The notes: generated by a model from the sequence alone, not told the origin. Counted from the stretch's first letter, positions 21,972-63,953 are shown. The stretch: 64,000 bases of DNA from Gammaproteobacteria bacterium (GCA_015491735.1 WFVH01000092.1:1838-65837); one strand, 5' to 3'. A program made the numbers and translations.

Positions 21972-22072
21972 GTAACTATTCAGATCACCCCTGAAATCCG
22001 CCAGTTCAAGGCAAATTTCAGGGGCAATCTGAACAGTTACCGGCTTGTTTCATACCTATGCTGAATAGTTAC
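21972..22072 (+). mobile_element. MITE copy 1 (101-bp internally deleted/fold-back variant)
   Basis: Termini GTAACTATTCAG...GCTGAATAGTTAC. Perfect 8-bp TSD CTGCCAAT at 21964-21971 and 22073-22080. Confidence 0.9.
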
Positions 22073-22142
22073 CTGCCAATAAGCCTTCCCCGAAGTTGTT
22101 TCGGAAGCTGTCACCGTGCGCTGTATTGTACAAGAAGCAAAT

Positions 22143-22988
22143 TCAGCCGGTAAAGCGCATCGACAGATCCACTGCCTGCAGATTCTTGGTGATCAGCCCT
22201 ACCGAGATGTAGTCAACTCCGGTTGCGGCAACGGCGGGGATGGTTTTCAGCGTGATGCCGCCAGAGGCCTCCAGTTCGGCACGGGTATCGGTGATGGCCA
22301 CCGCTTCTCGAAGTGCAGTGTTGTCCATATTGTCCAGCAGGATGCGATCGGCGCCAGCCGCCAGTGCTTCATGAAGCTCCTCCAGGGTTTCTACCTCGAC
22401 CTCCAGCGGTATCCTGTTGTGAGAGAGCGCTCGGGCCTGGCGAACTGCCTCGCTGATGGAGCCAGCAGCCATGATGTGGTTCTCCTTGATCAGAATGGCG
22501 TCGAACAGGCCGATACGGTGATTGTGTCCGCCGCCGCAAAGGACCGCATACTTCTGCGCCCGCCGCAGGCCGGGGAGCGTCTTGCGGGTATCGAGGATCT
22601 TTACACCGCTGCCGGCAACAGCATCGACATAATGCCGGGTCAGCGTGGCGGTGCCGGAGAGGGTTTGCAGAAAATTGAGCGCGGTACGCTCCACGGTCAG
22701 CAGGGTACGGGCCGGACCGTTGATGGTGCAAAGCGGCTGATTAAGCGCAAGGTGTTCGCCATCTGCTGCGTGCCAGATGATCTTGACCGAGTCATCGAAC
22801 TGGCGGAATGCCTCATCCACCCAGGCTGTTCCACACAGCACCGCCTGGTCGCGGCAGACAATCTCTGCCTGGGCGGGCGTCTCTCCGGTGATCAGCCGCG
22901 CGGTCAGATCACCATTGCCGATATCTTCCTCCAGCGCGATACGAACCTGGTGGCGGATCTCTGTCTCTGTCAGATAGTAGGGGAACAC
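22143..22988 (-). CDS. nadC: nicotinate-nucleotide diphosphorylase (quinolinate phosphoribosyltransferase)
   Basis: 281 aa, NadC-like (…DTRKTLPGLR…KENH…). Divergent from ampD, as in enterobacteria. Confidence 0.92.
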   Translation of the reverse strand: MFPYYLTETEIRHQVRIALEEDIGNGDLTARLITGETPAQAEIVCRDQAVLCGTAWVDEAFRQFDDSVKIIWHAADGEHLALNQPLCTINGPARTLLTVERTALNFLQTLSGTATLTRHYVDAVAGSGVKILDTRKTLPGLRRAQKYAVLCGGGHNHRIGLFDAILIKENHIMAAGSISEAVRQARALSHNRIPLEVEVETLEELHEALAAGADRILLDNMDNTALREAVAITDTRAELEASGGITLKTIPAVAATGVDYISVGLITKNLQAVDLSMRFTG

Positions 22989-23176
22989 GGGCTGTCCTCG
23001 TTCTTGATTGTGAGCGCGCCGTTATGCTCGTCGCCGGGTTAATAATATACCCGACTGAATGAAAAAACTCTAAAATAGCAGCATTACATACATAACCGCA
23101 AAACAGTATACCGCCGCTGTATGGATGCAAGCGTTTGATTTTCAAAATCCACCAAACATCAATTGCATACCGGAAC

Positions 23177-23328
23177 GTAACTATTCAGCTCACCCCTGAA
23201 ATTCGCCATTTCTGCGTTGAAAAAGGGTCATTTACACGCGTAAACTCCCATTTTTCGCCTTGAACTGACGAATTTCAGGGGCAATCTGAACAGTTACCGG
23301 CCTGTTTCATACCATGCTGAATAGTTAC
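23177..23328 (+). mobile_element. MITE copy 2 (152 bp, canonical)
   Basis: TIRs GTAACTATTCAGC / GCTGAATAGTTAC. TSD ACCGGAAC at 23169-23176 and 23329-23336. Confidence 0.93.
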
Positions 23329-23503
23329 ACCGGAACAAAGTATCAGCCATACAAGTTTGCTCGAATAGTTTGGCGTGTTGCCCGGTTTGCGCCGGTCGCT
23401 ACGCCTCAATTTACGCAAACCGGACAACAGGTTAAACTGCCGGTGATTTACGGCGACATACAGGCGCGGGTTGGGTGAAAAGGTGCAAAACCGGGATGGG
23501 GGA

Positions 23504-24052
23504 ATGCGGATAGATATCACCACTGGGCTGCTGGAGGATGCGCGCCAGGTCTGTTCCCCTAACTGTGATCGACGCAGCCGGGGTGAGACTATCAGCCTGC
23601 TGGTGATTCACAGTATCAGCTTGCCGCCAGCGCAGTTTGGCGGCCCCTGGATCGATGCCCTGTTCACCAACACGCTCGATCCCCGCGTGCATCCCTATTT
23701 TCAGTCAATTGCCGGGCTGCGGGTTTCTGCCCATGTGTTGATCCGGCGGGATGGTGAGATGGTGCAGTATGTCCCTTTCCATGCCCGTGCCTGGCACGCA
23801 GGCCACTCCTGTTTCCAGGGGCGGGAGTGCTGTAATAATTTCTCGATTGGCGTTGAACTGGAAGGGTGTGACGAACTGCCATACGAAGAGGTGCAGTACC
23901 GGCGCCTGATCTCTCTGACCCGTTCTGTGATGGAGAATTATCCAGCAATTACGCCGCAGCGTATTGCGGGTCACTGCGATATCGCTCCCGGGCGCAAGAC
24001 TGATCCTGGCCCCCTGTTTGACTGGGAGCGTTATCGAAAAGCGCTGAAGTGA
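23504..24052 (+). CDS. ampD: 1,6-anhydro-N-acetylmuramyl-L-alanine amidase AmpD
   Basis: Internal ATG of track ORF 23471..24052. Amidase_2 motifs are present (VIHSISLPP, AWHAG, NNFSIGVELEG). Confidence 0.9.
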   Translation: MRIDITTGLLEDARQVCSPNCDRRSRGETISLLVIHSISLPPAQFGGPWIDALFTNTLDPRVHPYFQSIAGLRVSAHVLIRRDGEMVQYVPFHARAWHAGHSCFQGRECCNNFSIGVELEGCDELPYEEVQYRRLISLTRSVMENYPAITPQRIAGHCDIAPGRKTDPGPLFDWERYRKALK

Positions 24053-24093
24053 ATTTGATGCGTTGAGCCAGACGGGAAAATGAAAGGAGAAGC

Positions 24094-24245
24094 GTACCTA
24101 TTCAGCTCACCCCTGAAATCCGCCATTTCTGCGTTGAAAAAGGGTCATTTACACGCGTAAACTCCCATTTTTCGCCTTGAACTGACGAATTTCAGGGGCA
24201 ATCTGAACAGTTACCGGCTTGTTTTATACCATGCTGAATAGTTAC
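24094..24245 (+). mobile_element. MITE copy 3 (152 bp, canonical; left terminus GTACC)
   Basis: TSD GGAGAAGC at 24086-24093 and 24246-24253. Confidence 0.93.
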
Positions 24246-24428
24246 GGAGAAGCGACAATATGAACCGGAATACCCCATCGTGCAGTCTGTGTGCGGAGCT
24301 TTGCGCAGCGCCACTGCCGACGTGGCGGCAAGAGGGTGGATGGGACAATCCGCCTGCTGTTTCGCGCTGCTCTCATCCCGGTGGCAGTATTGGCGCTGAT
24401 ATGGCCCTGGCTGACCGGGTTCATTGAG

Positions 24429-25043
24429 ATGTTGATCGATCTCTTGCGCCATGGCGAACCGGTAGGGGGACGGCGCTACCGCGGTCAACTGGATGATCCC
24501 CTCAGTGAAAAAGGGTGGCGGCAGATGTGGGCAGCAGTACCGGATACTGTCCCCTGGGACGCCATTTTCACCTCACCACTGCAACGCTGCGCCGGTTTTG
24601 CCGCTGAACTGGCCAGGCGCCACACGTTGCCGCTGACGCGGGAGCCTCGTTTGATGGAGATCGGCTTTGGTGAGTGGGAAGGACTCACAGCAGAACAGGT
24701 GAACCGTAACGCCCCGGATGCCTTGATGAAGTTCTACCGGAATCCGGTCGACAACAAGCCCCCGGGGGCCGAATCACTGGGCAAATTCCGCCGCCGCATC
24801 TGCAGCGTCTGGGAGGAGATTCTGGCGGGTCAGGGTGACCAGCATCTGCTTGTCGTTGCCCATGCCGGGGTCGTGCGCATGATTCTATGCCAGGTGCTGA
24901 GGATGCCGGAGGAACACATGTTTTCCATTTTGGTACCCAATGCCGGGATAACCCGTATCCGCATGGAGAGCCAGGGGGAGATGCGCCTGGCGCGACTGGT
25001 ATTTCACGGCGCGCTGGCTTTGCCACACCATGATCCCTGTTGA
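24429..25043 (+). CDS. histidine phosphatase family protein (CobC/GpmB-like)
   Basis: Internal ATG of track ORF 24291..25043. RHG catalytic motif LLRHGEPVGG. Confidence 0.8.
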   Translation: MLIDLLRHGEPVGGRRYRGQLDDPLSEKGWRQMWAAVPDTVPWDAIFTSPLQRCAGFAAELARRHTLPLTREPRLMEIGFGEWEGLTAEQVNRNAPDALMKFYRNPVDNKPPGAESLGKFRRRICSVWEEILAGQGDQHLLVVAHAGVVRMILCQVLRMPEEHMFSILVPNAGITRIRMESQGEMRLARLVFHGALALPHHDPC

Positions 25044-25152
25044 TACCGGGTTGTACTGTTCCTGAATTCGTGAATTCAGGGTGGAGTGGAGAAAAGCCTT
25101 TCGCGACTCTGGAAATCAAGGCGCTTGCGCCAGTGATGAAAAAGCGCTCTGC

Positions 25153-27834
25153 TCAATCGTTTGGCCTGCCGTCGGACTCGCAGTCGAGGTATCGCTTGAT
25201 GGTTTCAGACAGTTTTTGTTGGCGTTGTGGACTCTCTACCGGCCGGTTTTCATCGTCGGTGATGAAAAAGATATCCTCCGCCCTTTCACCAATTGTAGCT
25301 ATTTTTGCATTGTGGATGACGATGCCGTGCTCCCGCAGAGCAAAACCAAGCCGTGCCAGCAGACCGGGGCGATCGGCCGTTATTATCTCCATTACCGTGC
25401 GTTGATTGGCCTTGTCTGTTGTGAAACTGACCGAGGTGGAGATAGGGAAACACTTCAACTGGCGCGAGATGCGGCGGGTAACCTGGCCGTTGCCACCAAG
25501 CCGTTTCAGTCCTTGCCGCAGCCTCTCCAGTATTTCCCGAACACGCTGGGGACTGCTGATGGCTTCCCCGTTCTGCTCCAGGACGGTCAGTGTGTTCAAG
25601 GTATAACCATTGCGCGAAGTGATGATACGGGCATCGGCAATGGTCAGTCCATTTTGTTCGAGCAGTGAAGCGGTGTGGGCGAATACATTCTCCTCCACAC
25701 GAGTGTAGATGAATATTCCGGTACCACCGCGCCGGGTTGTCTGGCGCATCAGCACCAGCGGCAGTTCGGTTTCATCGCTGCCCAGTATGGCGCATGTGTG
25801 CCAGACGATTTCGTCGGCAGAGTAACGCAGGAAGTAGTCGTCATCGAAATTCTCCCATAGCGCTTCAAAATCGGGTTTTGGCAGGGTGTGCTGCCGAAGT
25901 TGCTGACGGGCCTGTTTCTTGATTATTCCGATACGCTCTTGTTGCAAAGGAGGGTTGGTTACGCCTCTGCGAAGAATGCGTTTGGTTCCATTGTATAACT
26001 CTACCAGCAGTGCGTTCTTCCAGCTGTTCCAGGCGCTGGCATTGGTGGCGCGGATATCCGCCACGGTAAGCAGATAGAGATGGTTCAACCGATCGACATC
26101 CCCCACCTGTGTGGCAAAGTCATGAATCACGCCGGGATCACTGATGTCCTTGCGCTGCGCTGTCATGGACATGACGAGGTGGTTCTTGACCAGCCAGGTT
26201 ATCAGACTGGTGTTGTAGGGTCCGAGTTCGTGGTCGATGCAGAATTTTTTGGCGTCCACCGCACCCAGTTCAGAGTGGTTGCCGCCGCGGCCTTTGGCGA
26301 TGTCGTGAAACAGTGCCGCAATGTAGAGAATCTCCGGATGGGGCAGGTGAGAGATGATCCGGTTGCAGAGCGGGAACTCATGTGCATATTGCGGAACCGT
26401 GAAGCGGCGCAGGTTGCGCAATGTGACCAGTGTATGCTCGTCAACGGTATAAACATGAAAAAGATCATGCTGCATCTGGCCAACGATACGGCCAAATTCC
26501 GGCAGATAGGCGGCCAGAACGCCATAGCGGTTCATCCGCCTCAGCTCCCGCGTCACGCCCCGGGATTGGCGTAAAATATCCAGAAACAGCTTCCGGTTTT
26601 TGCGGCTGGCGCGAAACTTGTCGCCGATCAGATGGCGATGCTCCCGTACCAAGCGGATGGTTTCCGCGCGTACGCCATTCAGTTCCGGCCGTTGCGCCAT
26701 TACCAGGAACAGCTCCAGCAGCGCGCAAGGGTGGTGGCGGAACAGGGTTGGTTCGGTTACTTCCAGAAACCCTTTCCGAACCTGAAAATGGGCATTGACA
26801 GGTGCCGGTTCGCCCGGCTCGTCTGCATGAAGAATCTGTTCCTGAAACAGTTGCAGCAGCATTTCATTGAGACGGCTCAGCTCCATGACGGTTCGGTAGT
26901 AGCGCTTCATCAGCTGTTCCACCGCCAGCTCGTGTTCGCTGTCCTCGTAGCCGAGCCGTGCGGCCAGGACTCGCTGGTAGTCAAACAGCAGCCGCTCTTC
27001 ACCCCGGCCGGTCAGGCTGTGCAACCCAAACCGGAGCTGCCACAGGAACGACTGCCCGGCCATCAAGGTGCGGTACTCCTGTTCGCTGAGAAAGTTGTGG
27101 GTAACGAGGTCATGCAGCGTGGCGGCGCCAAAATGGCGTTTGGTGATCCAGCCGATCATCTGGATATCCCGCAGTCCGCCCGGACCGCTTTTGATATTGG
27201 GTTCCAGATTGTAGGCCGTGTCGTGAAATTTGTGGTGCCGCTGAATCTGCTCTTCCCACTTGGCGGCGAAGAACGCCCTGCTGGACCAGATGGCCCGGGG
27301 TCCCGTTCGCTGCTGCAGCGCCAACAGCAACTCTGCTGAACCATCAATCAAGCGTGACTCCATCAGGTTGGTGGCGATGGTGATATCCTCCGCAGCCGCC
27401 GATACACACTCGTCCAGCGAACGGATACTGTGCCCGATCTCCAGGCCAACATCCCAAAGGGTGGTCAGGAACTTTTCGAAACTACTTTTTAATCCATTGT
27501 CATCTCTTTGTTTCAAAAGAATTAGTATATCTATATCGGAGCAGGGATGAAGTTCGCCGCGGCCATAGCCGCCAACGGCGACCAGTGCAATATCACAGAG
27601 ATGCTCTTTGAAATAGAGCTGCCAGATGCGCTGCAGCACCTGATCCACGGCCTGGGCGCGGGCATGAACGAGTTCCTCCACCGGGGCGCCCCGTTCAAAC
27701 TGCTCTTCCAGCGCTTTCCCGGCCTGGCTCAAGGCCTTGCGGAACAGGGGGATTGGGGCAGCACCGTCCGCCAACCGGTCGTCCAGCGCCGCCGTGTCGA
27801 TCAGAACCAGCCTGGATCCCTCCGAATCCATCAA
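25153..27834 (-). CDS. glnD: [protein-PII] uridylyltransferase / uridylyl-removing enzyme
   Basis: 893 aa with a nucleotidyltransferase motif GGYGRGELHPCSDIDILIL, an HD domain and two C-terminal ACT-like regions. Confidence 0.94.
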   Translation of the reverse strand: MMDSEGSRLVLIDTAALDDRLADGAAPIPLFRKALSQAGKALEEQFERGAPVEELVHARAQAVDQVLQRIWQLYFKEHLCDIALVAVGGYGRGELHPCSDIDILILLKQRDDNGLKSSFEKFLTTLWDVGLEIGHSIRSLDECVSAAAEDITIATNLMESRLIDGSAELLLALQQRTGPRAIWSSRAFFAAKWEEQIQRHHKFHDTAYNLEPNIKSGPGGLRDIQMIGWITKRHFGAATLHDLVTHNFLSEQEYRTLMAGQSFLWQLRFGLHSLTGRGEERLLFDYQRVLAARLGYEDSEHELAVEQLMKRYYRTVMELSRLNEMLLQLFQEQILHADEPGEPAPVNAHFQVRKGFLEVTEPTLFRHHPCALLELFLVMAQRPELNGVRAETIRLVREHRHLIGDKFRASRKNRKLFLDILRQSRGVTRELRRMNRYGVLAAYLPEFGRIVGQMQHDLFHVYTVDEHTLVTLRNLRRFTVPQYAHEFPLCNRIISHLPHPEILYIAALFHDIAKGRGGNHSELGAVDAKKFCIDHELGPYNTSLITWLVKNHLVMSMTAQRKDISDPGVIHDFATQVGDVDRLNHLYLLTVADIRATNASAWNSWKNALLVELYNGTKRILRRGVTNPPLQQERIGIIKKQARQQLRQHTLPKPDFEALWENFDDDYFLRYSADEIVWHTCAILGSDETELPLVLMRQTTRRGGTGIFIYTRVEENVFAHTASLLEQNGLTIADARIITSRNGYTLNTLTVLEQNGEAISSPQRVREILERLRQGLKRLGGNGQVTRRISRQLKCFPISTSVSFTTDKANQRTVMEIITADRPGLLARLGFALREHGIVIHNAKIATIGERAEDIFFITDDENRPVESPQRQQKLSETIKRYLDCESDGRPND

Positions 27835-28598
27835 TCCTGCTTGCCGGCAAGCTGTGTCAGTATTTCAACCCCATCTTCGGTAACCAGAACGGTATGCTCC
27901 CATTGAGCCGAAAGGCTGTGATCCTTGGTGACCACAGTCCAGCCATCAGCAAGCAAACGAACTTCCCGGCGGCCTGCGTTGACCATCGGTTCGATGGTAA
28001 AGGTCATCCCGGCCTTCAGCGGTATCCCGGTACCGGGGGTTCCATAGTGCAATACTTGAGGCTCTTCATGGAAACCACGTCCGATGCCATGCCCGCAGTA
28101 TTCACGCACGATGGAGCAGCCGTTTCTCTCCGCATGCTGCTGAATGGCGTAACCGATATCCCCCAGGCGGACTCCCGGCCGCACCATCTCTACTCCCTTC
28201 ATCAAGCACTCATGGGCGATGCGCACCACCCGTCTGGCCCGTATCGAAGGTTCTCCGACAAAGAACATCTTGCTGGTATCGCCATGATAACCATCCTTGA
28301 TAACAGTAATGTCTATGTTGATGATATCGCCGTTTTTCAGCTTTTTCGCACTTGGAATACCGTGGCATACCTGGTGATTGACCGAGGTACAGATGGATTT
28401 TGGAAAGCCATGGTAGTTGAGCGGTGCCGGCGTGGCTTGTTGAACCCCGGTAATATACTCATGCGCCAGACTGTCCAGCTCCTCCGTGGTAATGCCGGAT
28501 TTCACATGAGGTGCCAGAAACGCCAGCACTTCGGCCGCCAGTCTCCCTGCGGTACGCATCTTCTCTATCTCTTCGGTGGTTTTGATATTGATACTCAT
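27831..28598 (-). CDS. map: type I methionine aminopeptidase
   Basis: 255 aa, M24A family (…CHGIP…DIINIDIT…GHGIG…). The glnD-map/rpsB arrangement is conserved. Confidence 0.94.
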   Translation of the reverse strand: MSINIKTTEEIEKMRTAGRLAAEVLAFLAPHVKSGITTEELDSLAHEYITGVQQATPAPLNYHGFPKSICTSVNHQVCHGIPSAKKLKNGDIINIDITVIKDGYHGDTSKMFFVGEPSIRARRVVRIAHECLMKGVEMVRPGVRLGDIGYAIQQHAERNGCSIVREYCGHGIGRGFHEEPQVLHYGTPGTGIPLKAGMTFTIEPMVNAGRREVRLLADGWTVVTKDHSLSAQWEHTVLVTEDGVEILTQLAGKQD

Positions 28599-28929
28599 AA
28601 TATTTGCTGTTTGGTGGATTCAGGGAACGGCAGCACGGGGATCTTCGCTGTTCGAACCATGAGATGAATTCGCAAGGTGTTGTTTTTTGCGCAGGAATCC
28701 GGCCGCCGGCGCCCCATCCGGCCGAGTACTGGATCACCCGGCGAATTGTCGTTATAACCGGTTTATGGTATAAAGCGCACGCCGTCTTGGCAAATCCGGT
28801 TGCTTGCCCGGCGGGCAACCGGCTCGAAATACGCACATGCACCGACACGTATGCCAGGGTGCTTACTTGACAAAGGTAGGTTGGCATATGGGGTGTGTGG
28901 AGGAATAACCCTGATCAGGAGAAACATAG

Positions 28930-30030
28930 ATGTCAACCGTATCCATGCGTGAAATGCTGGAGGCCGGTGTTCACTTCGGCCATCAGACCCGTTACTGGAA
29001 CCCCAAAATGGCGCCTTATATTTTCGGTGCCCGCAACAAGATTCATATCATCAATCTGGAGAAAAGTGTCCCCCTGTTCCAGGAGGCTCTCAACTATATT
29101 GGTGCTCTGGCCGCCAGGAAGGGCACCATTCTGTTTGTTGGCACCAAGCGAGCGGCCCAAAATGCCATCAAGGAGCAAGCCGAGCGCTGTGGCATGCCCT
29201 ATGTCAATCACCGCTGGCTCGGCGGGATGCTGACCAACTACAAGACGGTCAAACAGTCCATCAAGAGGCTCAAGGATCTGGAAGCGATGAGGGATGATGG
29301 CTCTTTTGGGCGCTTGAGCAAGAAAGAGGCGCTGATGTTGACAAGAGAGCTGGAGAAACTGGATCGCAGTTTGGGTGGAATCAAGGAGATGAAAGGCCTG
29401 CCCGATGCATTGTTCATCATCGATGTCGGTCATGAAAAAATTGCCGTGCGCGAAGCAAGCACGCTGGGAATTCCCGTGGTGGGTATCGTCGACACCAACT
29501 ACGCTCCGGACGGCGTTGACTATGTTGTCCCCGGCAATGACGATGCCATTCGCGCCATTCAACTGTATACCCGCTGCGTGGCCGACGCCGTTTTGGAGGC
29601 CCGCGCCTCCGCCGTCTCCGCAGGCGATGCCGCTGCCGGTTCAGATGACTTTATCGAGGTGGAAAACGGTGATGATACGCCTACCCCGCGTCCCGAACCT
29701 GCCGGCGCGGAAAAACCCTCGACTGCCGAAAAGAAAACCGTGGCAGCGAAGCGTGCCGAACCAACAGATGACGGAGCGGACGACTTTACGAAAATCGAAG
29801 GAATAGGCCCCAAGATTTCAGCCATACTGGCCGGTAACGGAATCAGAACATTCACAGAGCTGGCCAGCATGGAGGCTGGCAGCATCAAGCAGATGCTGGT
29901 TACCGCCGGCTCCCAGTATAATCGCGCCGATCCCGCCACCTGGCCAAAGCAGGCCGAGTATGCCGCCAAGGGTGAGTGGGAGGCCCTGAAAAAGTGGCAG
30001 GATGAACTCGACGGCGGACGGGCAGGGTAG
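28930..30030 (+). CDS. rpsB: 30S ribosomal protein S2 with C-terminal extension
   Basis: The first ~245 aa are canonical S2 ([19 protein letters not shown]…) and end at a DDFIEVE tail equivalent to the E. coli C-terminus. The ORF continues for ~120 more aa (see findings). Confidence 0.93.
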
Positions 30031-30037
30031 CCGGTTC

Positions 30038-30079
30038 CGCCCCCCTGGCCGGTTATTGGCGACCGCTGCCAGGGGGGCG
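30038..30079 (+). other. stable hairpin in rpsB-tsf spacer (possible attenuator)
   Basis: Perfect 12-bp stem CGCCCCCCTGGC / GCCAGGGGGGCG with an 18-nt loop and no U-tract. Confidence 0.4.
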
Positions 30080-30132
30080 CTCATGTCGGCAGGCTACCCA
30101 TTTGTAGCCAGTCCGATCAGGTATCGTAATAT

Positions 30133-30284
30133 TTAACTATTCAGCATAGTATGAAACAAGCCGGTAACTGTTCAGATTGCCCCTGAAATGCGTCAGTTCA
30201 AGGCGAAAAATGGGAGTTTACGGGTGTAAATGACCATTTTTCAACGCAGAAATGGCGGATTTCAGGGGTGAGCTGAATAGTTAC
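30133..30284 (-). mobile_element. MITE copy 4 (152 bp, inverted orientation)
   Basis: TSD CGTAATAT at 30125-30132 and 30285-30292. One terminus is mutated (TTAAC). Confidence 0.92.
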
Positions 30285-30314
30285 CGTAATATTTGGAAAT
30301 ATCCGAGGTATAAC

Positions 30315-31190: not shown

Positions 31191-31197
31191 TCTCATC

Positions 31198-32498: not shown

Positions 32499-32603
32499 TG
32501 CTCCGTCCAGGTGATAATCCGGGATACAGTTGCTTCGATGGCCATGGCCCGTTCCGCCAGCGACAGACAGACTATCTTGGTAACCTGCATTCCCTATTGA
32601 AAT

Positions 32604-37033: not shown

Positions 37034-37180
37034 ATGCCTGCAGTTCCCAACCGCTTTTATTTTTTGGTGCTGCCGCATACGCTGGCAGGCTGTGTGTTAT
37101 CGAAGCCCGCTGCCGGCGTACACGCGGTAGCCGGGGGCCCTGTTATATCCGGGTGCCGGATTAATATAATTTTGAGGTAA
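37034..37180 (+). CDS. candidate 48-aa small lipoprotein, 3' end replaced by MITE insertion
   Basis: AAGGAG at 37021-37026, 7 nt before the ATG. The N-terminus MPAVPNRFYFLVLPHTLAGC has a lipobox LAGC. The stop TAA is supplied by bases 2-4 of MITE copy 5. I recognise no homology. Confidence 0.3.
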   Translation: MPAVPNRFYFLVLPHTLAGCVLSKPAAGVHAVAGGPVISGCRINIILR

Positions 37181-37328
37181 CTATTCAGCTCACCCCTGAA
37201 ATCCGCCATTTCTGCGTTGAAAAATGGTCATTTACACCCGTAAACTCCCATTTTTCGCCTTGAACTGACGCATTTCAGGGGCAATCTGAACAGTTACCGG
37301 CTTGTTTCAGACTATGCTGAATAGTTAC
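37177..37328 (+). mobile_element. MITE copy 5 (152 bp, canonical)
   Basis: TSD ATTTTGAG at 37169-37176 and 37329-37336. Confidence 0.93.
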
Positions 37329-42548: not shown

Positions 42549-42701
42549 GTAACGATTCAGCATAGTATGAAACAAGCCGGTAACTGTTCAGATTGCCCCT
42601 GAAATCCGCCATTTCTGCGTTGAAAAATGGTCATTTACACCCGTAAATGACCATTTTTCAACGCAGAAATGGCGGATTTCAGGGGCAATCTGAATAGTTA
42701 C
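42549..42701. mobile_element. MITE copy 6 (153 bp, palindromised variant)
   Basis: TSD GATCCTGT at 42541-42548 and 42702-42709. A 31-nt tail is followed by two 59-nt arms that are reverse complements with 1 mismatch around a 4-nt loop. Confidence 0.92.
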
Positions 42702-49682: not shown

Positions 49683-49803
49683 GTAACTATTCAGCTTGCC
49701 CTTGAAATCCGTCAGTTCAAGGCGAAAAATGGGAGTTTACGTGTGTAAATGAGCATTTTTCAACGCAGAAATGGCGTATTTCAGGGGTGAGCTGAATAGT
49801 TAC
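49683..49803 (-). mobile_element. MITE copy 7 (121-bp tail-less core, inverted orientation)
   Basis: Both 26-nt outer repeats and the centre are present, but the 31-nt tail is absent. The flanking 8-mers do not match (GTAGCGAC vs GAGCGATA). Confidence 0.85.
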
Positions 49804-49811
49804 GAGCGATA

Positions 49812-54451: not shown

Positions 54452-54556
54452 CTCTCCTTTCTCAGCTTATTGATGGTCGGTTCAGTATCAATATGGGGCC
54501 GGTATAAAGAGATTAAAGGGCTTTCATGAGCAGGGCGTGCCCCCTGTCAGGCGCAC

Positions 54557-54581
54557 AAAAAAAACGCCGCATGCGCGGCGT
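54557..54581 (-). terminator. intrinsic terminator downstream of cheR
   Basis: On the minus strand, GACGCCGC-GCAT-GCGGCGT is followed by T8. It lies ~30 nt after the cheR stop. Confidence 0.8.
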
Positions 54582-54611
54582 CAAACAAGGGGATATCAGA
54601 CGTTCGGCAAC

Positions 54612-55448: not shown

Positions 55449-55491
55449 ATCTGCCCCTGCTTTCAAACGTTGAATCTGCAATCTATAACTG

Positions 55492-55518
55492 TTATCGGAA
55501 CCCTGAAATGAAACTTGA
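55492..55518 (-). promoter_or_regulatory. sigma28-type promoter of cheR
   Basis: Minus strand TCAAGTTT-N11-TCCGATAA (7/8 and 7/8 matches to TAAAGTTT-N11-GCCGATAA). Confidence 0.6.
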
Positions 55519-55521
55519 GGG

Positions 55522-55680
55522 GTAACTATTCAGCTCACCCCTGAAATCCGCCATTTCTGCGTTGAAAAATGGTCATTTACACGCGTAAACTCCCATTTTT
55601 CGCCTTGAACTGACGAATTTCAGGGGCAATCTGAACAGTTACCGGCCTGTTTCATACTATATACTATGCTGAATAGTTAC
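55522..55680 (+). mobile_element. MITE copy 8 (159 bp, canonical plus 7-bp internal duplication)
   Basis: TSD CTTGAGGG at 55514-55521 and 55681-55688. The tail has an extra ACTATAT repeat. Confidence 0.93.
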
Positions 55681-55769
55681 CTTGAGGGGAAATTTTTGTC
55701 ACGACTCGGCAAATGGGGTTATTAACCGACATATTTGGGTGCCGGATTGGATGATGGACTCTTTTCTCG

Positions 55770-58700
55770 TCAGGAAAAAAAAGCGGAAAGGCGCTTGACC
55801 GAAACCGGCCGGCAGGTGCCTAGCTGCTGGGCGAACAGGGAAACACGCAGCTCCTCCAGCAGCCAGCGGTACTCCTCCAGCACGGGGTCGGTACTGCCCA
55901 TGCCGCCGCTCTTCTTGTCGCTGCGCTGCAGATACTCCCGCCACAGGGGATGGAGCTGGCGCAGGTTGGCGCAATCCCGCTCTACGCCTCCCTGCAGCTT
56001 GTCCATGCGCAATCTCATGGCGGCCAGATAGCGCGGTATCTGCTGCATCCACGGCCAGGGGGTGCGGCTGACGAAGCCGGGATAAACCAGATGGGACAGC
56101 TGTTCGCGCAGATCGGCCACCGCGTGAATCCAGGCCGGCGATACCGCTCCATCGAGGCGTTTTGCCAGTGTATGATGTTCGGCCAGGATCGCCTCCAGCA
56201 GCTCGCAGAGCCGGTTGGCGAACGGTACCAACCCTCCCCGCGCCTGCTCCAGGCGCTGTTCGAAGGCGGCTGTATCGCGCGGTGGCGCAGAATCACCGAT
56301 AAACACCTGGTTGGTTACAGCGAACAGCAGATCCTGTTTCAGCTCATCGCAACGTCCGATGGAAGCATAGTGCATGCACATCGCTTGTGTGACCGGCAGC
56401 CTGTTGCGCAGATATTTCATTTTGCCGCCAAGATTCAGCATGAACAGCCGGCGCAGCCCGGCACGCATCGCCTCATCGGCCGTCCGGCGGGTGTCGTACA
56501 GCCGGATCGCTACCGACTCTCCCCTGTCCACCAGCGCAGGATAGCCGCGCAACCGCACCCCTGCCCGTTCGAACTCCACCACCTCCGGCAGTTCACCAAA
56601 ATCCCAGTGGATGATGCCGTCACGCTCCAGCGTCAGACGGGGCCGACAGGAGAAACTGCTCCGGGCATGACTGCCCAGCTTCTGCTGCAATGCGGTCAGA
56701 TCACGCCCGGCACCCAGCACCTTCCCCGCACTGTCCACCACCCGGAAGTTCATCCGCAGGTGAGCGGGCAGATCCTCCATCGGCCACATCTCTGCCGCAA
56801 TGCTTTCACCGCTGATTCTGCGCAGATGGGACGACAACACCTCCGTCAACGGGGCGTCATCGGCCGCCAACGCCTCAACGCAGGCCCGTGCATAATCAGG
56901 AACCGGTACAAAGTTGCGCCGCAGCGCCTTGGGCAGCCCCCGCAACAGGGTGGTGATCTTCTCCTCCAGCAATCCTGGCACCAGCCACTCGAACCGCTCC
57001 GGGCGGAGCTGGTTGAGCAGCTCCACGGGCACGGTGACAGTAACGCCGTCTTCGGCATGCCCTGGCTCGAACCGGTAGTTCAACGGCAGCCGCAGGCCGG
57101 CCACAGAGAGGGTGTCCGGAAATCGCTCTGCGTTGATGTGAGCCGCATCATGCAGCATCAGGTAGTCACGGGACAGGAACAGCAACTGCGGATTGTCCCG
57201 TTCCGCCCGTTTGCGCCACTGCTCGAAACGGGCGCCGGAGTATATCCCGGCGGGAATCCGCTCATCGTAGAAGGCGAACAGCGCCTCATCGTCCACCAGC
57301 ACATCGTGGCGGCGAGATTTGTGCTCCAGCCGTTGAATCTCTGTCACCTGCTGGCGGTTGTGCCGGAAAAAAGGCGCCCGGGTACGGTATTCCCCCTGCA
57401 CCAGCGCCTGCTGGATAAAGATTCGCCGGGACTCTTCCGCGTCGATGGGTCCATAGTTGATGCGGCGGCGCGGATGAATAATCAGCCCGTAGAGAGTGAC
57501 CTGTTCATATGCCGCCACCTGGGCCGGCCGCTTTTCCCAATGCACCCCGGAGTAGCTGCGTTTGACCAATGTGCTGGCCAGCGGCTCCACCCAGGCGGGA
57601 TCGATGCGCGCCACGACGTGGGCGTAAAGCCGGGTGGTCTCGATAAGCTGCGCCGCCATGATCCATTTGGGGCGCTTTTTGAACAACCCGGAGCCTGGGA
57701 AAATAGACAATTTGATATTGCGCGCGCCCTGATAGCGCGACTCATCCACCTTCACCGCAATCTGGCCCAGCAGACCGGCCAGCAACGCGCGGTGGATGGC
57801 GTCATACCCGGCGGCCTGCTGGTTGGGGCGCAGCCCCATTTCCCGCGCCAGGGTCAGTAGTTGGCTGTGCAGCTCGCGCCACTCGCGCAGCCGTACGAAA
57901 GAGAGAAAATGTTGGCGGCAGTAGCGGCGCAGCTTGTTCTGTGACAGGCGCCAGCGCTGTTCCTCGTAGTGTTGCCACAGGTTCAACAGGGAGAGAAAAT
58001 CCGACTGTTCGTCACGAAACCGGCGGTGGGCCTCATCGGCCTGCTGCTGCGCCTCCAGCGGCCGCTCGCGCGGATCCTGGATGGTCAACGCCGCGGCGAT
58101 AACAAGCACCTCATGCAGGCACCCCTCCTGCCCCGCCGCCAGAATCATGCGGCCGATACGCGGATCGATGGGCAGGCGCGCCAGCCGGCGGCCCAGGGGC
58201 GTGATGCGCCGCTCGCCATCCATTGCTCCCAGCTCCTGCAGCAGCCGGTAACCATCGCTGATCTGGCGTCTGTCCGGCGCCTCCACGAACGGGAACTGCT
58301 CCACCTCTCCCAGTCCCAGCGTGCTCATGCTCAGTATGACCGAGGCAAGGTTAGTGCGCAGGATCTCCGGCTCGGTAAACTCCGGGCGGTTGTCAAAATC
58401 CTGCTCTGAATAGAGCCGGATGGCGACACCCGCAGCCACCCGTCCGCAGCGCCCGCTGCGCTGGTTGGCGCTGGCGCGGGAGATCTTCTCTACCGGCAGG
58501 CGCTGCACTTTGTTACGGTAGCTGTAGCGGCTGATGCGGGCCAGGCCGGTGTCGATCACATAGCGGATCCCCGGAACGGTCAGTGAGGTTTCGGCCACAT
58601 TGGTGGCCAGTACGATGCGCCGCCCCTTGTGGCTGCTGAACACGCGGTTCTGCCCGGCTGCCGACAGCCGCGCGTAGAGCGGCAGAATCTCGGTGTGGGG

Positions 58701-59582
58701 TGGATGGTGTTTTCGCAGCGCCTCGGCGGTATCGCGGATCTCCCGTTCACCGGGGAGAAACACCAGGATGTCGCCCCGGTCGATGCGGGAGAGCTTATCC
58801 ACTGCATCGACAATCGCCTGCTGCATATCCCGATCCCGCGCATCCTCCTCCCCGTCCGCCAGCGGCAGGTAGCGGATCTCCACCGGCCAGGTGCGTCCGG
58901 AGACCTCGATTACCGGGGCATCATCGAAGTGCCGGGAGAAACGCTGCGTGTCGATGGTGGCGGAGGTGATGACCAGCTTCAAATCCGGGCGGCGTGGCAG
59001 CAGCTGTTTGAGATAGCCGAGCAGAAAGTCGATATTCAGGCTGCGTTCATGGGCCTCGTCGATGATCAGGGTATCGTAGCGGTTCAGGCAGCGGTCACCC
59101 TGAATTTCGGCCAGCAGGATACCATCGGTCATCAGTTTGACATAGCTCTCCGGGCTGATCCGATCCTTGAAACGCACCTTGTAGCCCACCGCTCCACCCA
59201 GTTCGCACCCCAGCTCATCGGCAATGCGCCCCGCTACGCTGCGGGCGGCGATACGGCGTGGCTGGGTATGGCCGATCAGGCCAGCCGTTCCCCGTCCCAA
59301 CTCCAGGCAGATCTTGGGTAGCTGAGTCGTTTTGCCGGAGCCGGTTTCCCCGGCAACGATGACCACCTGATGCTGTTTGATGGCCTGCATGATCGCCGTG
59401 CGGTGCTCCACCACCGGCAGTTCTGTGGGGTACCGGGGCACCGGCAACGGCGCCCGGCGCTGCTGCTCCGGTGCTGAAGTTTGTCGATATTTACGGTGAC
59501 TTGCCACTGCGTATTCTGGTACTTCGTCGCGAAAATGATTCAGGATACACCGTTCCCGGGGTGTTGCGCGGCAAGGTGTCAC
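55770..59582 (-). CDS. hrpA: ATP-dependent RNA helicase HrpA
   Basis: 1270 aa. DEAH-box motifs GETGSGKTTQLPK and DEAHERS, HA2/OB domains and a long HrpA C-terminal region. GTG start is uncertain. Confidence 0.93.
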   Translation of the reverse strand: MTPCRATPRERCILNHFRDEVPEYAVASHRKYRQTSAPEQQRRAPLPVPRYPTELPVVEHRTAIMQAIKQHQVVIVAGETGSGKTTQLPKICLELGRGTAGLIGHTQPRRIAARSVAGRIADELGCELGGAVGYKVRFKDRISPESYVKLMTDGILLAEIQGDRCLNRYDTLIIDEAHERSLNIDFLLGYLKQLLPRRPDLKLVITSATIDTQRFSRHFDDAPVIEVSGRTWPVEIRYLPLADGEEDARDRDMQQAIVDAVDKLSRIDRGDILVFLPGEREIRDTAEALRKHHPPHTEILPLYARLSAAGQNRVFSSHKGRRIVLATNVAETSLTVPGIRYVIDTGLARISRYSYRNKVQRLPVEKISRASANQRSGRCGRVAAGVAIRLYSEQDFDNRPEFTEPEILRTNLASVILSMSTLGLGEVEQFPFVEAPDRRQISDGYRLLQELGAMDGERRITPLGRRLARLPIDPRIGRMILAAGQEGCLHEVLVIAAALTIQDPRERPLEAQQQADEAHRRFRDEQSDFLSLLNLWQHYEEQRWRLSQNKLRRYCRQHFLSFVRLREWRELHSQLLTLAREMGLRPNQQAAGYDAIHRALLAGLLGQIAVKVDESRYQGARNIKLSIFPGSGLFKKRPKWIMAAQLIETTRLYAHVVARIDPAWVEPLASTLVKRSYSGVHWEKRPAQVAAYEQVTLYGLIIHPRRRINYGPIDAEESRRIFIQQALVQGEYRTRAPFFRHNRQQVTEIQRLEHKSRRHDVLVDDEALFAFYDERIPAGIYSGARFEQWRKRAERDNPQLLFLSRDYLMLHDAAHINAERFPDTLSVAGLRLPLNYRFEPGHAEDGVTVTVPVELLNQLRPERFEWLVPGLLEEKITTLLRGLPKALRRNFVPVPDYARACVEALAADDAPLTEVLSSHLRRISGESIAAEMWPMEDLPAHLRMNFRVVDSAGKVLGAGRDLTALQQKLGSHARSSFSCRPRLTLERDGIIHWDFGELPEVVEFERAGVRLRGYPALVDRGESVAIRLYDTRRTADEAMRAGLRRLFMLNLGGKMKYLRNRLPVTQAMCMHYASIGRCDELKQDLLFAVTNQVFIGDSAPPRDTAAFEQRLEQARGGLVPFANRLCELLEAILAEHHTLAKRLDGAVSPAWIHAVADLREQLSHLVYPGFVSRTPWPWMQQIPRYLAAMRLRMDKLQGGVERDCANLRQLHPLWREYLQRSDKKSGGMGSTDPVLEEYRWLLEELRVSLFAQQLGTCRPVSVKRLSAFFS

Positions 59583-59625
59583 AGGCCATGGCCGCCGCCC
59601 TTGACGGAGTAATAGTGTTGCCGGG

Positions 59626-60354
59626 CTAATGCTGGTCAGCAGGCCAATCGAATATTTTCTTCAACCGGGTTCTGTTGCCTTTTCCTCCCGGCTTCAGCAC
59701 CAGAATGGCGCGAGATGGGGTGAACCCTGGTGGAAGTCTGATCTCTCCCTCGAGATTCTGAAAATATTTGAAGTTGTAGCGCAACCGTTTGACAGGGGGA
59801 GCCGAGATCTGGCCAAGCGACAACAGTTTCTTTTCTCCCGATTTGGTTGTCACTCCTTCCACTTGAAGTTCTGCCGTTCCTTTTGCGGTGCCCCGGTTTT
59901 TCAATACCCGCGTCAGCACCAGTTTGTAGTGCCATGAGTGTGGTTCATCCCCTTTCGTTACACTGAAGTTCTGGATCTGAAGCCCTCGTTCGGCATCTTC
60001 AGGAGAGATGATTCCACGATAGAATGCAAGCTCTTCCTTCAACTCGAGCAGCTCTTCCTGTAACGACACCAGATCCTTTCTGACCTGCCCGTAGGCCTGG
60101 TTCTCGATGCGCATCGTCTGCTCCAGATCCAGCTTCTCCTTGCGCAGTTTTTTCAACTCTGTCTCAAAAACGGCGTTGCTCTTCTCGAGCCGCTGGCGGA
60201 TATCGTTGAAAACGACCCGATCATATCCGGCCCGATAGCGCCCGTACTCGAAAATTCCCCAGGCCGCCAGCAACAGGGCGGCCATCGACAGCGCCAGTCC
60301 AATCTGCCACAGGGGGCCCCTCTCCTCCTTGCCGCCGATAACGCTTCGCTTCAT
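59626..60354 (-). CDS. hypothetical membrane-anchored coiled-coil protein
   Basis: 242 aa with an N-terminal TM ([20 protein letters not shown]) followed by a coiled coil. Overlaps the argC stop and lies between argC and hrpA. Confidence 0.6.
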
Positions 60355-61382
60355 GGCATCAGGGCGATGAGTTCGAGGCCGGAGGTCTCATCCAGGCCAA
60401 ACATCAGATTCATATTCTGTACCGCCTGGCCTGCTGCTCCCTTCACCAGATTGTCGATAACCGACAGAACCACGATCATATCGCTGTTCGGCGGGTTGTG
60501 AAGGGCAATACGGCAGGTGTTGGAACCCCTGACACTACGCGTCTCCGGGTGACTGCCGCCAGGCATCACATCGACGAATGGTTCGTCAGCAAACCGCTCT
60601 TCGAACAGCGTCTGCCAGTTGACCTCTGTCTGGCGGGATACCGCATACAAGGTAGCGTGAATTCCACGAATCATTGGAGCGAGATGGGGGACGAAAACAA
60701 GCCCGACACCGGCACCGTTCACAGTCGTCAATCCCTGCCGAATCTCCGGCAGGTGCCGGTGTCCCGCCACACTGTAAGCCTTGATGCTTTCGCTGCACTC
60801 CGCCAGCAGGTGACCGGTAACGGCTTTTCGCCCCGCGCCGCTGACGCCGGACTTTACATCGGCGATCAACCTGCCCGCATCAACCGCTCCCGCCTCCAGT
60901 AACGGCAGAAAGCCCAGTTGTACCGCAGTGGGGTAGCAGCCCGGACAGGCCACCAGTCGTGCTTCCCGCAGCAGTTGCCGATTCATTTCGGGCAGACCAT
61001 AGACCGCCTCGCCCAGCAGTTCGGGACAGCGGTGCGGCATGCCATACCACTGCTCCCACTCGGCAGCATCCTTGAGCCGGAAATCGGCTGCGAGATCGAT
61101 GACCCGGACGTTGGCCGCGAGCAGCTCCGGCGTCATGCCCATGGCCGTGCCGTTTGGCGTGGCAAAAAAGACCACATCGCACTCCCGCAGCAACTGCTCA
61201 TCCGGTGCGGTGAACCGCAGTGACACCCGGTCACGCAGGTTGGGAAACATATCCGCCACGGCCGTTCCTGCTTCCGACCGGGAGGTAATCACTGCAGGCT
61301 CCACGTCGGGGTGCGCCGCCAGCAGGCGTAACAACTCAACGCCGGTATACCCCGTCCCACCCACTATTCCTGCCTTAATCAT
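60351..61382 (-). CDS. argC: N-acetyl-gamma-glutamyl-phosphate reductase
   Basis: [21 protein letters not shown] and active-site GCYPT. Confidence 0.94.
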
Positions 61383-61425
61383 CCGGTATCCATATCCTTG
61401 TTATCAAAAAAACCATTGAAATATC

Positions 61426-61577
61426 GTAACTGTTCAGCTCACCCCTGAAATCCGCCATTTCCGCGTTGAAAAAGGGTCATTTACACCCGTAAACTCCCAT
61501 TTTTCGCCTTGAACTGACGAATTTCAGGGGCAATCTGAACAGTTACCGGCTTGTTTCATACGATGCTGAATAGTTAC
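61426..61577 (+). mobile_element. MITE copy 9 (152 bp, canonical)
   Basis: TSD GAAATATC at 61418-61425 and 61578-61585. Confidence 0.93.
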
Positions 61578-61635
61578 GAAATATCATTTATGGATGCAAG
61601 TTGCAAGCGCAATCTCTCAGGATAGAATAGGTTCC

Positions 61636-62532
61636 ATGAGAATACTCGGCATCGGCATCGCAACGCTGGACATCATCAATACGGTTGATGACTATCCCGT
61701 TGAAGACAGTGAAGTGCGCATACTCCATCAGGAAAAGCGCCGCGGCGGAAACAGCACCAACACCCTGGCCGTTCTTGCGCAGTGCGGGCATCAGTGCAGT
61801 TGGGCCGGTGTGCTGGGGGAAGATCCGGATAGCCGCTGTATCACCGCTGATCTGGAGAAATACGGTATCGACTACCAAAGTTGCCACTCCGTTGCCGGCG
61901 GCCGGACACCCACTTCCTACATCACACTCAATCAGCGCAACGGTTCGCGTACCATCGTGCATTACCGCCAGTTGCCGGAGTTCGGTTTTTCGCAATTCAG
62001 GACTATCGAACTCTCCCCTTTCGACTGGATACACTTCGAAGGGCGTAATATAACGGATACCCGCAAGATGCTCGAGTATTGCGCCGCAGAGCACCCTGCC
62101 CTGCCCCGCTCTGTGGAGGTGGAGAAGCCGCGCCCCGGCATTGAGTCACTCTTTCCGCTGGCGAATGTACTGCTCTTCTCCAGAGTCTATGCTGCCGGTT
62201 GCGGTTTCAATGATGGCGCCGCCTTTCTGCAATCTGTCCACCAGCGGGTACCCCGCGCGACACTCGTATGCGCCTGGGGAAGCCTGGGAGCCTTCGCCAT
62301 GGACAGAGACGGAGCCATCATTACCAGCCCCGCTTATCCGCCGGATAAGATTGTCGATACTACCGGTGCGGGGGATGTCTTCAACGCCGGTATCATTGAT
62401 GGCCTGGTGCGCAGCGAAAAACCATCCCGAACGCTGCCAAACGCCTGCCGTCTGGCAGGTTTCAAATGCGGAATCCGGGGATTCGACGGGTTGGCGTGTT
62501 TACCGGAGCGGGAACAGCCTGTGACCGGTTGA
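61636..62532 (+). CDS. PfkB family carbohydrate kinase (ketohexokinase/ribokinase-like)
   Basis: Internal ATG of track ORF 61594..62532. N-terminal GIGIATLDII and C-terminal DTTGAGDVFNAG motifs. Confidence 0.85.
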   Translation: MRILGIGIATLDIINTVDDYPVEDSEVRILHQEKRRGGNSTNTLAVLAQCGHQCSWAGVLGEDPDSRCITADLEKYGIDYQSCHSVAGGRTPTSYITLNQRNGSRTIVHYRQLPEFGFSQFRTIELSPFDWIHFEGRNITDTRKMLEYCAAEHPALPRSVEVEKPRPGIESLFPLANVLLFSRVYAAGCGFNDGAAFLQSVHQRVPRATLVCAWGSLGAFAMDRDGAIITSPAYPPDKIVDTTGAGDVFNAGIIDGLVRSEKPSRTLPNACRLAGFKCGIRGFDGLACLPEREQPVTG

Positions 62533-62599
62533 AACCAGGGCAGACGAGACAGTGACCTCCGCGATCTTCACCAATGTGCTTGTTCCATCACCCGCCCCC

Positions 62600-62625
62600 T
62601 AAAGTATTTTACAGTTATCCGATAT
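62600..62625 (+). promoter_or_regulatory. sigma28-type promoter candidate upstream of MCP gene
   Basis: TAAAGTAT-N10-TCCGATAT (TAAA-N14-tCCGATAt). About 33 nt upstream of the ATG at 62658. Confidence 0.5.
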
Positions 62626-62657
62626 ATAGCGTATCGGACAAGACAGGATTTGACAGC

Positions 62658-63791
62658 ATGTTTTGGAACAGCAGCAAAAACCAACTGGAAACTCTGAATG
62701 AGAAGTGCAGCCATCTGGAGACAGACGTTGGCCGTTTTCGGCAACAGCTTCAGCAAGCGCAGGAGACAGAGAACCGGCTGAAACAGCAGGTTGCCGAAAA
62801 AGAGCATCAGCTGCTGCTTTGTCAGGGTATTTTTGGAAACATGCAATATTTCAACCAGGGTTTTGGCGCCCTGCAGCAATCCCTGTCAACCCTGGCAGGC
62901 GTGCTTGGCGAAGAGAAGCAAACAGCCTCGGAAGCCGCAAAGGCTTCAACCGAGGCCCGTAGCGGTAACGAGGAGGTTGTCCGGAATCTCAAGGAGGTGG
63001 TTGGCTTGACTACGGATGGCGCCGGAAATGTCGACAGCCTGAATGAGCGGGTCGAGGCCATTGGCAACATCGTCAATATGATCAATGATATTTCGGAACA
63101 GACCAACCTCCTGGCGCTGAACGCCGCTATCGAGGCGGCGCGCGCCGGCGAGTCCGGTCGCGGTTTTGCTGTGGTGGCCGATGAGGTGCGCAATCTGTCT
63201 CACCGGACCAATGACGCTACGAAAGAGATCTCCGAACAGGTCTGTAAAATCCAGCAGGCTACCAGCCAGGTTCAGCAACAGATGCAACGTATGGCGGAGT
63301 GGGTAGAGGAGCTGAGCGGGATTGGCGCCACGACCGCTTCCCGGATACATTCGACATTCGAGCTTGCGCAGCGCCTGGGCGGGACGATGTTTTCCAGCTC
63401 CATACGGGGTTTTGTCGAACTGACCAAAACGGACCATATGGTATACAAGTTTCAAATCTACCAGGTTCTGATGGGGGTGTCTGACAAAAAGGCTGACGAG
63501 TTCTCTGACCACACCAGCTGCCGGCTGGGAAAATGGTATTACCATGGCATAGGGCGGCAAACCTGTTCCCATTTGACCGCTTTCAGCAACCTGGAGCAGC
63601 CACACAAAGAGGTACACCACTGGGGTATCGAGGCAATAAAGAGTTACCGCAGTGGCAAACAGGAACCAGCGATAGAAGCGCTGCACAAGATGGAGCTTGC
63701 CAGCCTGAAAGTCATGGAGAATCTGGAAGAGATTGCCGTTTCGCTACAGGCCGAGTCGGTGCCAACCAGCCATGGTTCCAATTCGGACTGA
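62658..63791 (+). CDS. soluble methyl-accepting chemotaxis protein with C-terminal CZB (zinc-binding) domain
   Basis: No TM segments. MCP signalling hairpin ([35 protein letters not shown]). C-terminal [11 protein letters not shown]…H…H motif typical of CZB. Confidence 0.85.
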
Positions 63792-63801
63792 TACCCGTTT
63801 G

Positions 63802-63953
63802 GTAACTATTCAGCTCGCCCCTGAAATCCGCCATTTCTGCGTTGAAAAATGGTCATTTACACGCGTAAACTCCCATTTTTCGCCTTGAACTGGCGAATTT
63901 CAGGGGCAATCTGAACAGTTACCGGCTTGTTTCATACGATGCTGAATAGTTAC
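63802..63953 (+). mobile_element. MITE copy 10 (152 bp, canonical)
   Basis: TSD CCCGTTTG at 63794-63801 and 63954-63961. Confidence 0.93.

Follow-up and report, generated by a model that had tools for sequence, protein, structure and literature searches.

The window analysed here is a stretch of 64,000 nucleotides (64 kb) from a Gammaproteobacteria bacterium (GCA_015491735.1, WFVH01000092.1, positions 1838 to 65837). It has the same sequence as contig JALTPX010000142.1 of the metagenome-assembled genome GCA_027100595.1. Its gene content is that of a gammaproteobacterium, with secDF, a glycine riboswitch followed by gcv genes, tol-pal, nadC/ampD, glnD-map, the series rpsB-tsf-pyrH-frr-uppS-cdsA-dxr-rseP-bamA...lpxA, and also nosZ, hrpA and argC. 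Between these genes lie repeated copies of a small non-coding element with terminal inverted repeats (TIRs) and copy-specific target-site duplications (TSDs), which make up a genuine family of MITEs (miniature inverted-repeat transposable elements). A search of the window with the 13-nucleotide (nt) terminus GTAACTATTCAGC, allowing at most two mismatches, returned 30 matches where 0.54 would be expected by chance; 29 of them fall inside ten elements and one is a stray at 21325. The ten elements, numbered c1 to c10, are as follows.

21972-22072, plus strand: c1, 101 bp, lacking the hairpin centre through an internal deletion of 51 bp but retaining the tail; TSD CTGCCAAT at 21964-21971 and 22073-22080; 71 bp downstream of the stop codon of nadC (minus strand)
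23177-23328, plus strand: c2, canonical, 152 bp; TSD ACCGGAAC; in the divergent intergenic region of nadC and ampD
24094-24245, plus strand: c3, canonical, 152 bp; TSD GGAGAAGC; starts 42 bp past the ampD stop codon
30133-30284, minus strand: c4, canonical, 152 bp, inverted, with its tail on the left; TSD CGTAATAT; within the rpsB-tsf spacer, 103 bp past the rpsB stop and 31 bp ahead of the tsf start
37177-37328, plus strand: c5, canonical, 152 bp; TSD ATTTTGAG; between rseP and bamA, 50 bp ahead of the bamA start
42549-42701, minus strand: c6, 153 bp, inverted, with a near-perfect palindromic core in which arm A occurs twice, once on each side; TSD GATCCTGT; in the spacer separating lpxA and rsgA, which are convergent
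49683-49803, minus strand: c7, a 121-bp core with termini T1 and T2, no tail and the order of the arms reversed; 9 bp from the stop codon of a usp gene, with nosZ on the other side
55522-55680, plus strand: c8, 159 bp, whose tail spacer contains a tandem duplication of 7 bp; TSD CTTGAGGG; flanked by hrpA and cheR, which both lie on the minus strand
61426-61577, plus strand: c9, canonical, 152 bp; TSD GAAATATC; in the divergent spacer between argC and a sugar-kinase gene, which measures about 51 bp without the element
63802-63953, plus strand: c10, canonical, 152 bp; TSD CCCGTTTG; starts 11 bp past the stop codon of a chemoreceptor gene

An earlier note on this DNA, made by eye, had listed ten copies of such an element at these same coordinates and with these lengths (101, 152 for six copies, 153, 121 and 159 bp), and terminus search and element extraction both bear it out. 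It had also reported nine perfect and mutually different 8-bp TSDs, and extraction of the flanks recovered exactly its 8-mers. Since a chance match of eight nucleotides out of eight has a probability of about 1.5e-5 per copy, these are true target-site duplications. The exception is c7, by far the most diverged copy, whose flanks GTAGCGAC and GAGCGATA form no perfect TSD and look like a decayed duplication. At 101 to 159 bp the copies are too short to encode a transposase and have no coding capacity. After gene assignment (nadC, ampD, rpsB, tsf, rseP, bamA, lpxA, rsgA, nosZ, usp, cheR, hrpA, argC) every copy proves intergenic, as the note had said, many of them at just 9 to 50 bp from the nearest start or stop codon, and the two orientations it described are both present (c4, c6 and c7 on the minus strand, the other seven on the plus strand). 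Its estimate of about one copy per 6 kb agrees with the 1 per 6.4 kb measured over the entire window; within the 42 kb that hold the ten copies, the density is about one per 4 kb. The family is unusually dense, and in a genome known here from this 64-kb window a large, genome-wide and recently mobilised family is plausible.

The consensus of 152 bp is organised as follows.

1-13: terminus T1
14-59: arm A
about 60-63: loop
64-108: arm B
109-121: inner terminus T2, inverted relative to T1
122-139: spacer of 18 nt
140-152: outer terminus T3, a direct repeat of T2

T1 is paired with T3, and at positions 17-105 the arms fold into a long imperfect hairpin, so that the arrangement first proposed by eye, a two-armed hairpin followed by a tail with a third copy of the terminal motif, is confirmed on the consensus. 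Each copy has TIRs of 13 nt, perfect or near-perfect, of the form GTAACTATTCAGC...GCTGAATAGTTAC. The z-score of the predicted fold is -6.0 as DNA and -7.6 as RNA. Seven canonical copies diverge by 2 to 7 substitutions (mean 5.4 of 152), the 'handful' of the earlier note now counted, and c1, c6, c7 and c8 are the four variant copies described above. The centre of the hairpin also holds a sigma-70-like match, TTGAAA-18-TAAACT (9/12), located at 61466-61495 and at the same place in every canonical copy, and directed towards the tail.

The family extends well beyond this contig. Scanning one genome per GTDB species with the query GTAACTNTTCAGNNNNCCCCTGAAAT gave at least 81 loci (individual loci and contigs are designated L below), and all matches listed come from uncultured Gammaproteobacteria. 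Hosts among the matches listed are three Sedimenticola metagenome-assembled genomes (MAGs), Piscirickettsiaceae, Chromatiaceae, Methylococcales, Pseudomonadales, Aeromonadales and several unclassified hydrothermal or sediment MAGs; in all, the family is abundant in no fewer than 12 MAGs of uncultured gammaproteobacteria besides the source of the window. At least about 55 further elements bounded by the terminus were found in these loci, each with its own 8-bp TSD (0-1 mismatch) and with a modal length of 152 bp. As a negative control, we searched 80 glnD product (GlnD) loci of other gammaproteobacteria (about 1 Mb): terminus matches occurred at chance level and no MITE was found. When the consensus was compared by BLASTN with 72,556 plasmids, only short, chance-level matches appeared.

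From elements with perfect TSDs across all loci, 49 pre-insertion sites could be rebuilt. The positions just outside the duplicated 8-mer are strongly enriched in A or T, with 43 of 49 sites at -2, 42 at -1, 38 at +8 and 44 at +9, against a background A+T of 44%, and none of the 49 sites has a C at -1. The resulting target pattern, WW-N8-WW (W, A or T), is two-fold symmetric over these 49 sites, a symmetry that would be expected from a dimeric DDE transpososome cutting with an 8-bp stagger. The nine TSDs of the window, the TSDs of some 55 further copies and this symmetric preference uphold the earlier suggestion of independent insertions by a DDE transposase.

Which transposase this might be is suggested by the termini. 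The insertion sequences (ISs) of the IS66 family include an ISBst12 group whose members have a single open reading frame (ORF). All the single-ORF ISBst12-type elements that we examined, from five sources (Geobacillus, Oceanisphaera, Deinococcus, Aeromonas and environmental gammaproteobacteria), match the MITE terminus over 11-16 nt, and, read directly, the 13-mer GTAACTATTCAGC is identical to the ends of the Geobacillus and Oceanisphaera elements. The elements from named hosts are listed here.

Geobacillus kaustophilus pHTA426: IS of 1635 bp; ends GTAACTATTCAGCCC and GTATCTATTCAGCCC; TSD AACTCGTC
Oceanisphaera plasmid: IS of 1570 bp; GTAACTATTCAGCT at both ends; flanking 8-mers not matching
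Deinococcus wulumuqiensis: IS of 1454 bp; GTAACTGCTCAGCA at both ends; TSD TAAAAATC
Aeromonas caviae: ISKpn15, 1534 bp; ends GTAAGTATTCACC and GTATCTATTCACC; TSD GGCTGCAT

The transposase of the Geobacillus pHTA426 element has 485 amino acids (aa) and the domains DDE_Tnp_IS66, zf-IS66 and DUF6444. In a protein search with the gammaproteobacterial type of transposase, the relatives numbered over 7,800 and measured about 476-480 aa; they lie mostly on contigs of 1.5-2.5 kb, as is typical of a repeat assembling on its own. In the environmental contigs (L170-L194) the elements measure 1727-1729 bp and have ends of the form GTAACTATTCAG(C/T)...; on two long contigs they are flanked by perfect 8-bp TSDs, AAACGTTA (L190) and GAAAATCT (L192). 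The right end of the element in a Candidatus Thiodiazotropha MAG of the Sedimenticolaceae (L191), GTAACTATTCAGCTCA, is identical to T1 of the MITE over 16 of 16 nt and is also the right end found on two further contigs (L193 and L194). A characterised member of the group, ISDge4 of Deinococcus geothermalis (IS66 family, ISBst12 group), encodes one transposase of 449 aa, has TIRs GTGACTACTCAGCA and GTAACTGCTCAGCA and makes an 8-bp direct repeat, and its transposition was observed (PMC12898284). The ISBst12 group is barely studied, the first observed transposition having been reported only in 2026 (PMC12898284). Finally, other MITE families of about 248, 173, 162 and 102 bp, in Sedimenticola sp. 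MAGs (L023, L056, L060, L064, L071, L076, L078 and others), have the same GTAACTATTCAG terminus and 8-bp TSDs with unrelated interiors. Because several families with unrelated interiors share these 12-13 nt, the terminus is the part that appears to be recognised.

We therefore favour, with a probability of roughly 0.88, the explanation that the MITE is moved in trans by an ISBst12-group DDE transposase, from the branch of IS66 with a single ORF, and we infer that this genome has, or once had, such a transposase and that it moves this element. The link between MITE and candidate mobiliser is drawn from the termini only. In the proposed mechanism, the transposase would recognise the 12-13-nt GTAACTATTCAG(C) at both ends and cut the target with an 8-bp stagger, with a preference for WW-N8-WW sites, and gap repair would then produce the 8-bp duplication. 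The usual mobile unit would run from T1 to T3 (152 bp), while use of the inner T2 as an alternative right end would give rise to 121-bp copies.

Several observations weigh against this explanation. No ISBst12-type transposase gene or fragment was found in the window or in the 81 MITE-bearing loci by tblastn with Geobacillus, Halomonas and environmental queries; for the window, where family scans of large ORFs were equally negative, the earlier statement that no transposase is encoded thus stands. When the MITE was compared with six autonomous elements, similarity was limited to the terminal 12-16 nt and there were no interior matches. No specific parent element was identified, because the interior of the MITE matches no IS interior; such a likeness is, however, not required for mobilisation in trans. 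Several short metagenomic IS contigs have flanks that do not match, which we assume to reflect chimeric assembly of a multi-copy element. Nor was an empty orthologous site found by any of three approaches. In a GlnD scan of a metagenome collection the closest relatives were 56-61% identical and none had the element; exact-protein look-ups returned the source assembly as their only match; and BLAST with reconstructed empty sites gave no spanning match for the 152-bp MITE family. The nearest relative, MAG Dive96_bin10.247, has about 78% nucleotide identity, and its intergenic DNA is not alignable.

The sole hint of MITE and mobiliser in one genome comes from a Sedimenticola MAG contig (L004), which breaks 81 nt past an IS-type left end, GTAACTATTCAGG...GAAAGTGCTTGACA; the environmental ISs have left ends with which it can be aligned. 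Other candidates for a parent element were discarded. The termini in L041 are 3.7 kb apart and belong to two separate MITEs around ordinary genes; the 480-aa ORF of L024 is an IS701-family transposase with neither a matching right end nor a TSD; L033 and L045 have ordinary genes between unrelated termini; L042 holds a MITE copy interrupted by an IS30-type element; L004 has, at position 238, a degenerate or chimeric element; and L071 and L053 contain short fragments beside ordinary genes. In L042 the MITE copy (3017-3197) is broken after 31 nt by the inserted element, whose ORF starts MKSYTQLTQEERYQIEAL, an N-terminus of the IS30-family type. A plasmid of Halomonas sp. PA16-9 (L086) has at 1375-3200 an ISBst12-type element cut at its 3' end by IS21-type helper (IstB-like) sequence and adjoined by a gene for a group II intron reverse transcriptase.

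Could the mobiliser belong elsewhere in the IS66 family, or to another family altogether? The earlier note had guessed at an IS66-type partner, possibly with tnpA, tnpB and tnpC. At the level of the family this guess holds; it named no subgroup, and the ends match the single-ORF ISBst12 subgroup, so that looking for tnpA, tnpB and tnpC would be aimed at the wrong partner. Canonical three-ORF elements (tnpA-tnpB-tnpC) such as IS66, ISPsko1 and ISPa75 do share with the MITE a GTAA start and an 8-bp TSD, as in the inverted repeat of ISPsko1, GTAAGCGTCCGGCGAACTCACCTT (PMC12888890). However, unlike the MITE they have three ORFs and ends of the types GTAAGCG... and GTAAGCGTCCGG... (PMC12888890), and the MITE terminus GTAACTATTCAGC is not of the GTAAGCG... 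type, departing from canonical ends after position 4. All the single-ORF elements examined fit instead over 11-16 nt, and a regular expression for the canonical TnpC motif had no match in the window or the loci, so that a canonical mobiliser seems to us very improbable. Duplications of 8 bp are likewise made by ISL3, IS256, IS6/IS26 and IS1595, but the ends of these ISs start with GG... or Ga..., not GTAAC; the only other transposase genes near copies are the IS701-family gene, which lacks matching ends, and the IS30 element inserted into a copy. Another candidate is spread as a REP/BIME-type repeat (repetitive extragenic palindrome, REP; bacterial interspersed mosaic element, BIME) by a REP-associated tyrosine transposase (RAYT). 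REP/BIME repeats are, like the MITE, short, palindromic, intergenic and highly repeated. They are, however, palindromes of 20-40 nt with neither TSDs nor such TIRs, whereas the MITE has 152 bp and a perfect 8-bp TSD in nine of ten copies. We find mobilisation by any of these other systems barely credible.

An explanation of a different kind is that the element is a host-exapted module kept by host selection, which might act as a portable promoter, as a structured RNA or as a hairpin that stabilises or processes mRNA. This reading is compatible with a MITE moved by an ISBst12-type transposase, and a number of observations agree with it: the core is 83-96% identical between MAGs, against 65-79% for housekeeping genes, the hairpin is very stable on both z-scores given above, TTGAAA-18-TAAACT is a promoter-like site, the rpsB-tsf spacer has been invaded independently in two lineages, and c9 fills nearly the whole divergent promoter region of argC and the kinase gene. 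Against these stand the presence of both orientations relative to transcription and the lack of compensatory covariation (covariation term -0.02; double changes in 2 of 35 pairs, one of them in the termini), which leaves an RNA structure without covariation support. Rfam gave no match at its gathering threshold, only eukaryotic miRNA hairpin models far below it, and the conservation of the core is equally explained by horizontal spread or master-copy dynamics. Maintenance by host selection thus appears distinctly improbable.

The right end of the MITE is doubled. T2 and T3 are always 31 nt apart, and identity between lineages is no more than 16-48% in the 18-nt spacer, against 83-96% in the core. 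In one sub-lineage (L009:1709-1860, L028:4657-4808, L080:2023-2174 and L080:4993-5144) C replaces T at the eighth position of T1, T2 and T3 together; MAG Dive96_bin10.234 holds this variant together with the standard one. Core-only copies of 121 bp exist and carry duplications of their own, so T2 can work as an end. The geometry also occurs in an autonomous ISBst12-type element (L187, 1866-1930), where an inverted 32-nt fragment of the element's own left end abuts its right end, which matches the 31-nt doubling of the terminus in the tail of the MITE. Between the window and the Piscirickettsiaceae MAG the core is 86% identical, rpsB 73% and tsf 65%; across gammaproteobacterial orders the core stays at 83-96%, with the host rpsB and tsf at just 65-73%. 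This conservation suggests horizontal spread or constraint on master copies. Because of core conservation, the unrelated interiors elsewhere, the doubled right end and the L187 geometry, taken together, we put forward the tentative and on balance unlikely idea that the 121-bp core is more than a passive passenger, reflecting either a new feature of ISBst12-group transposition or a hairpin function selected by the host. The former would point to a second, phased transposase-binding site or to end-targeted insertion, the latter to an RNA or DNA structure or a promoter donor.

Some individual insertions deserve description. In the Piscirickettsiaceae MAG (L075, 6183-6368) the rpsB-tsf spacer is occupied independently by the same MITE family in the same orientation as c4, and the TSDs of the insertions in these two distant lineages differ (CGTAATAT in the window, at 30133-30284, and TAATAAAG in L075). 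Two MAGs with different names, S012_118 and Sedimenticola sp. 2 TCF1, have copies (L045, 1159-1310, and L053, 906-1057) that share the TSD CCCGGTGG and may be an orthologous insertion. In MAG S141_57 (L007, L036, L039, L042, L065 and L033), the DNA flanking several copies is itself repeated over about 140-230 bp at 85-94% identity, the MITE adjoining or sitting within another repeat family. The window also contains structured RNAs: a tandem glycine riboswitch upstream of the gcv genes (2899-3074, plus strand; two aptamers, 63 and 45 bits) and a t44 RNA (Rfam RF00127, 70 bits; 28814-28909, plus strand) directly upstream of rpsB. With 366 aa, the S2 protein encoded by rpsB is longer than usual and has an extension at its C-terminus.

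How does this family compare with known systems? The ISs of the ISBst12 group (ISBst12, ISDge4, ISKpn15, ISAs21/ISAS35 and the PGAP 'IS66-like element ISGka4 family') have the same GTAACTATTCAG(C) terminus over 11-16 nt and, like the MITE, 8-bp TSDs, with TIRs of about 13-16 nt. They are 1.45-1.73 kb long, and the single transposase that they encode has about 450-485 aa and the domain DDE_Tnp_IS66, usually together with DUF6444, whereas the MITE is a non-coding hairpin of 152 bp; unlike them it has a doubled right terminus, and it shares its interior with none of those examined. Classical bacterial MITEs are intergenic, multi-copy and mobilised in trans by an IS transposase (reviewed in PMC3184786). 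Correia/CREE of Neisseria, ERIC, RUP, Nezha and Chunjie are, as here, small and non-coding, with TIRs, TSDs and a stable hairpin, but they are unrelated in sequence to the 152-bp element and have a different partner family, though for Nezha, whose partner is ISNpu3, only presumably so. The TSD lengths of classical MITEs differ from 8 bp, as with the TA of Correia, and to our knowledge none of these five has its right terminus doubled in tandem at a constant distance. The earlier note did not recognise the element as a named MITE, and nothing contradicts this: there is no Rfam family for it, its terminus sequence is absent from the searchable literature, and we found no ISBst12-derived MITE described there. 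By comparison with Rfam and that literature, the family appears undescribed.

As a MITE family of known type it is conceptually unsurprising and leaves the current understanding of MITEs unchanged. What is gained is the name of a likely mobiliser for a repeat family of very high density, which breaks assemblies and fills intergenic DNA in sulfur-oxidising and related marine gammaproteobacteria that are uncultured, among them Sedimenticolaceae. Copies may affect expression, since they are located inside operons (rpsB-tsf) and in divergent promoter regions. For annotation, the family has a simple signature, GTAACTATTCAG...CTGAATAGTTAC plus an 8-bp duplication. For the ISBst12 group, it would offer a natural set of substrates, with a minimal end of 12-13 nt, a target of the symmetric form WW-N8-WW and a right end that can be either the inner or the outer one.

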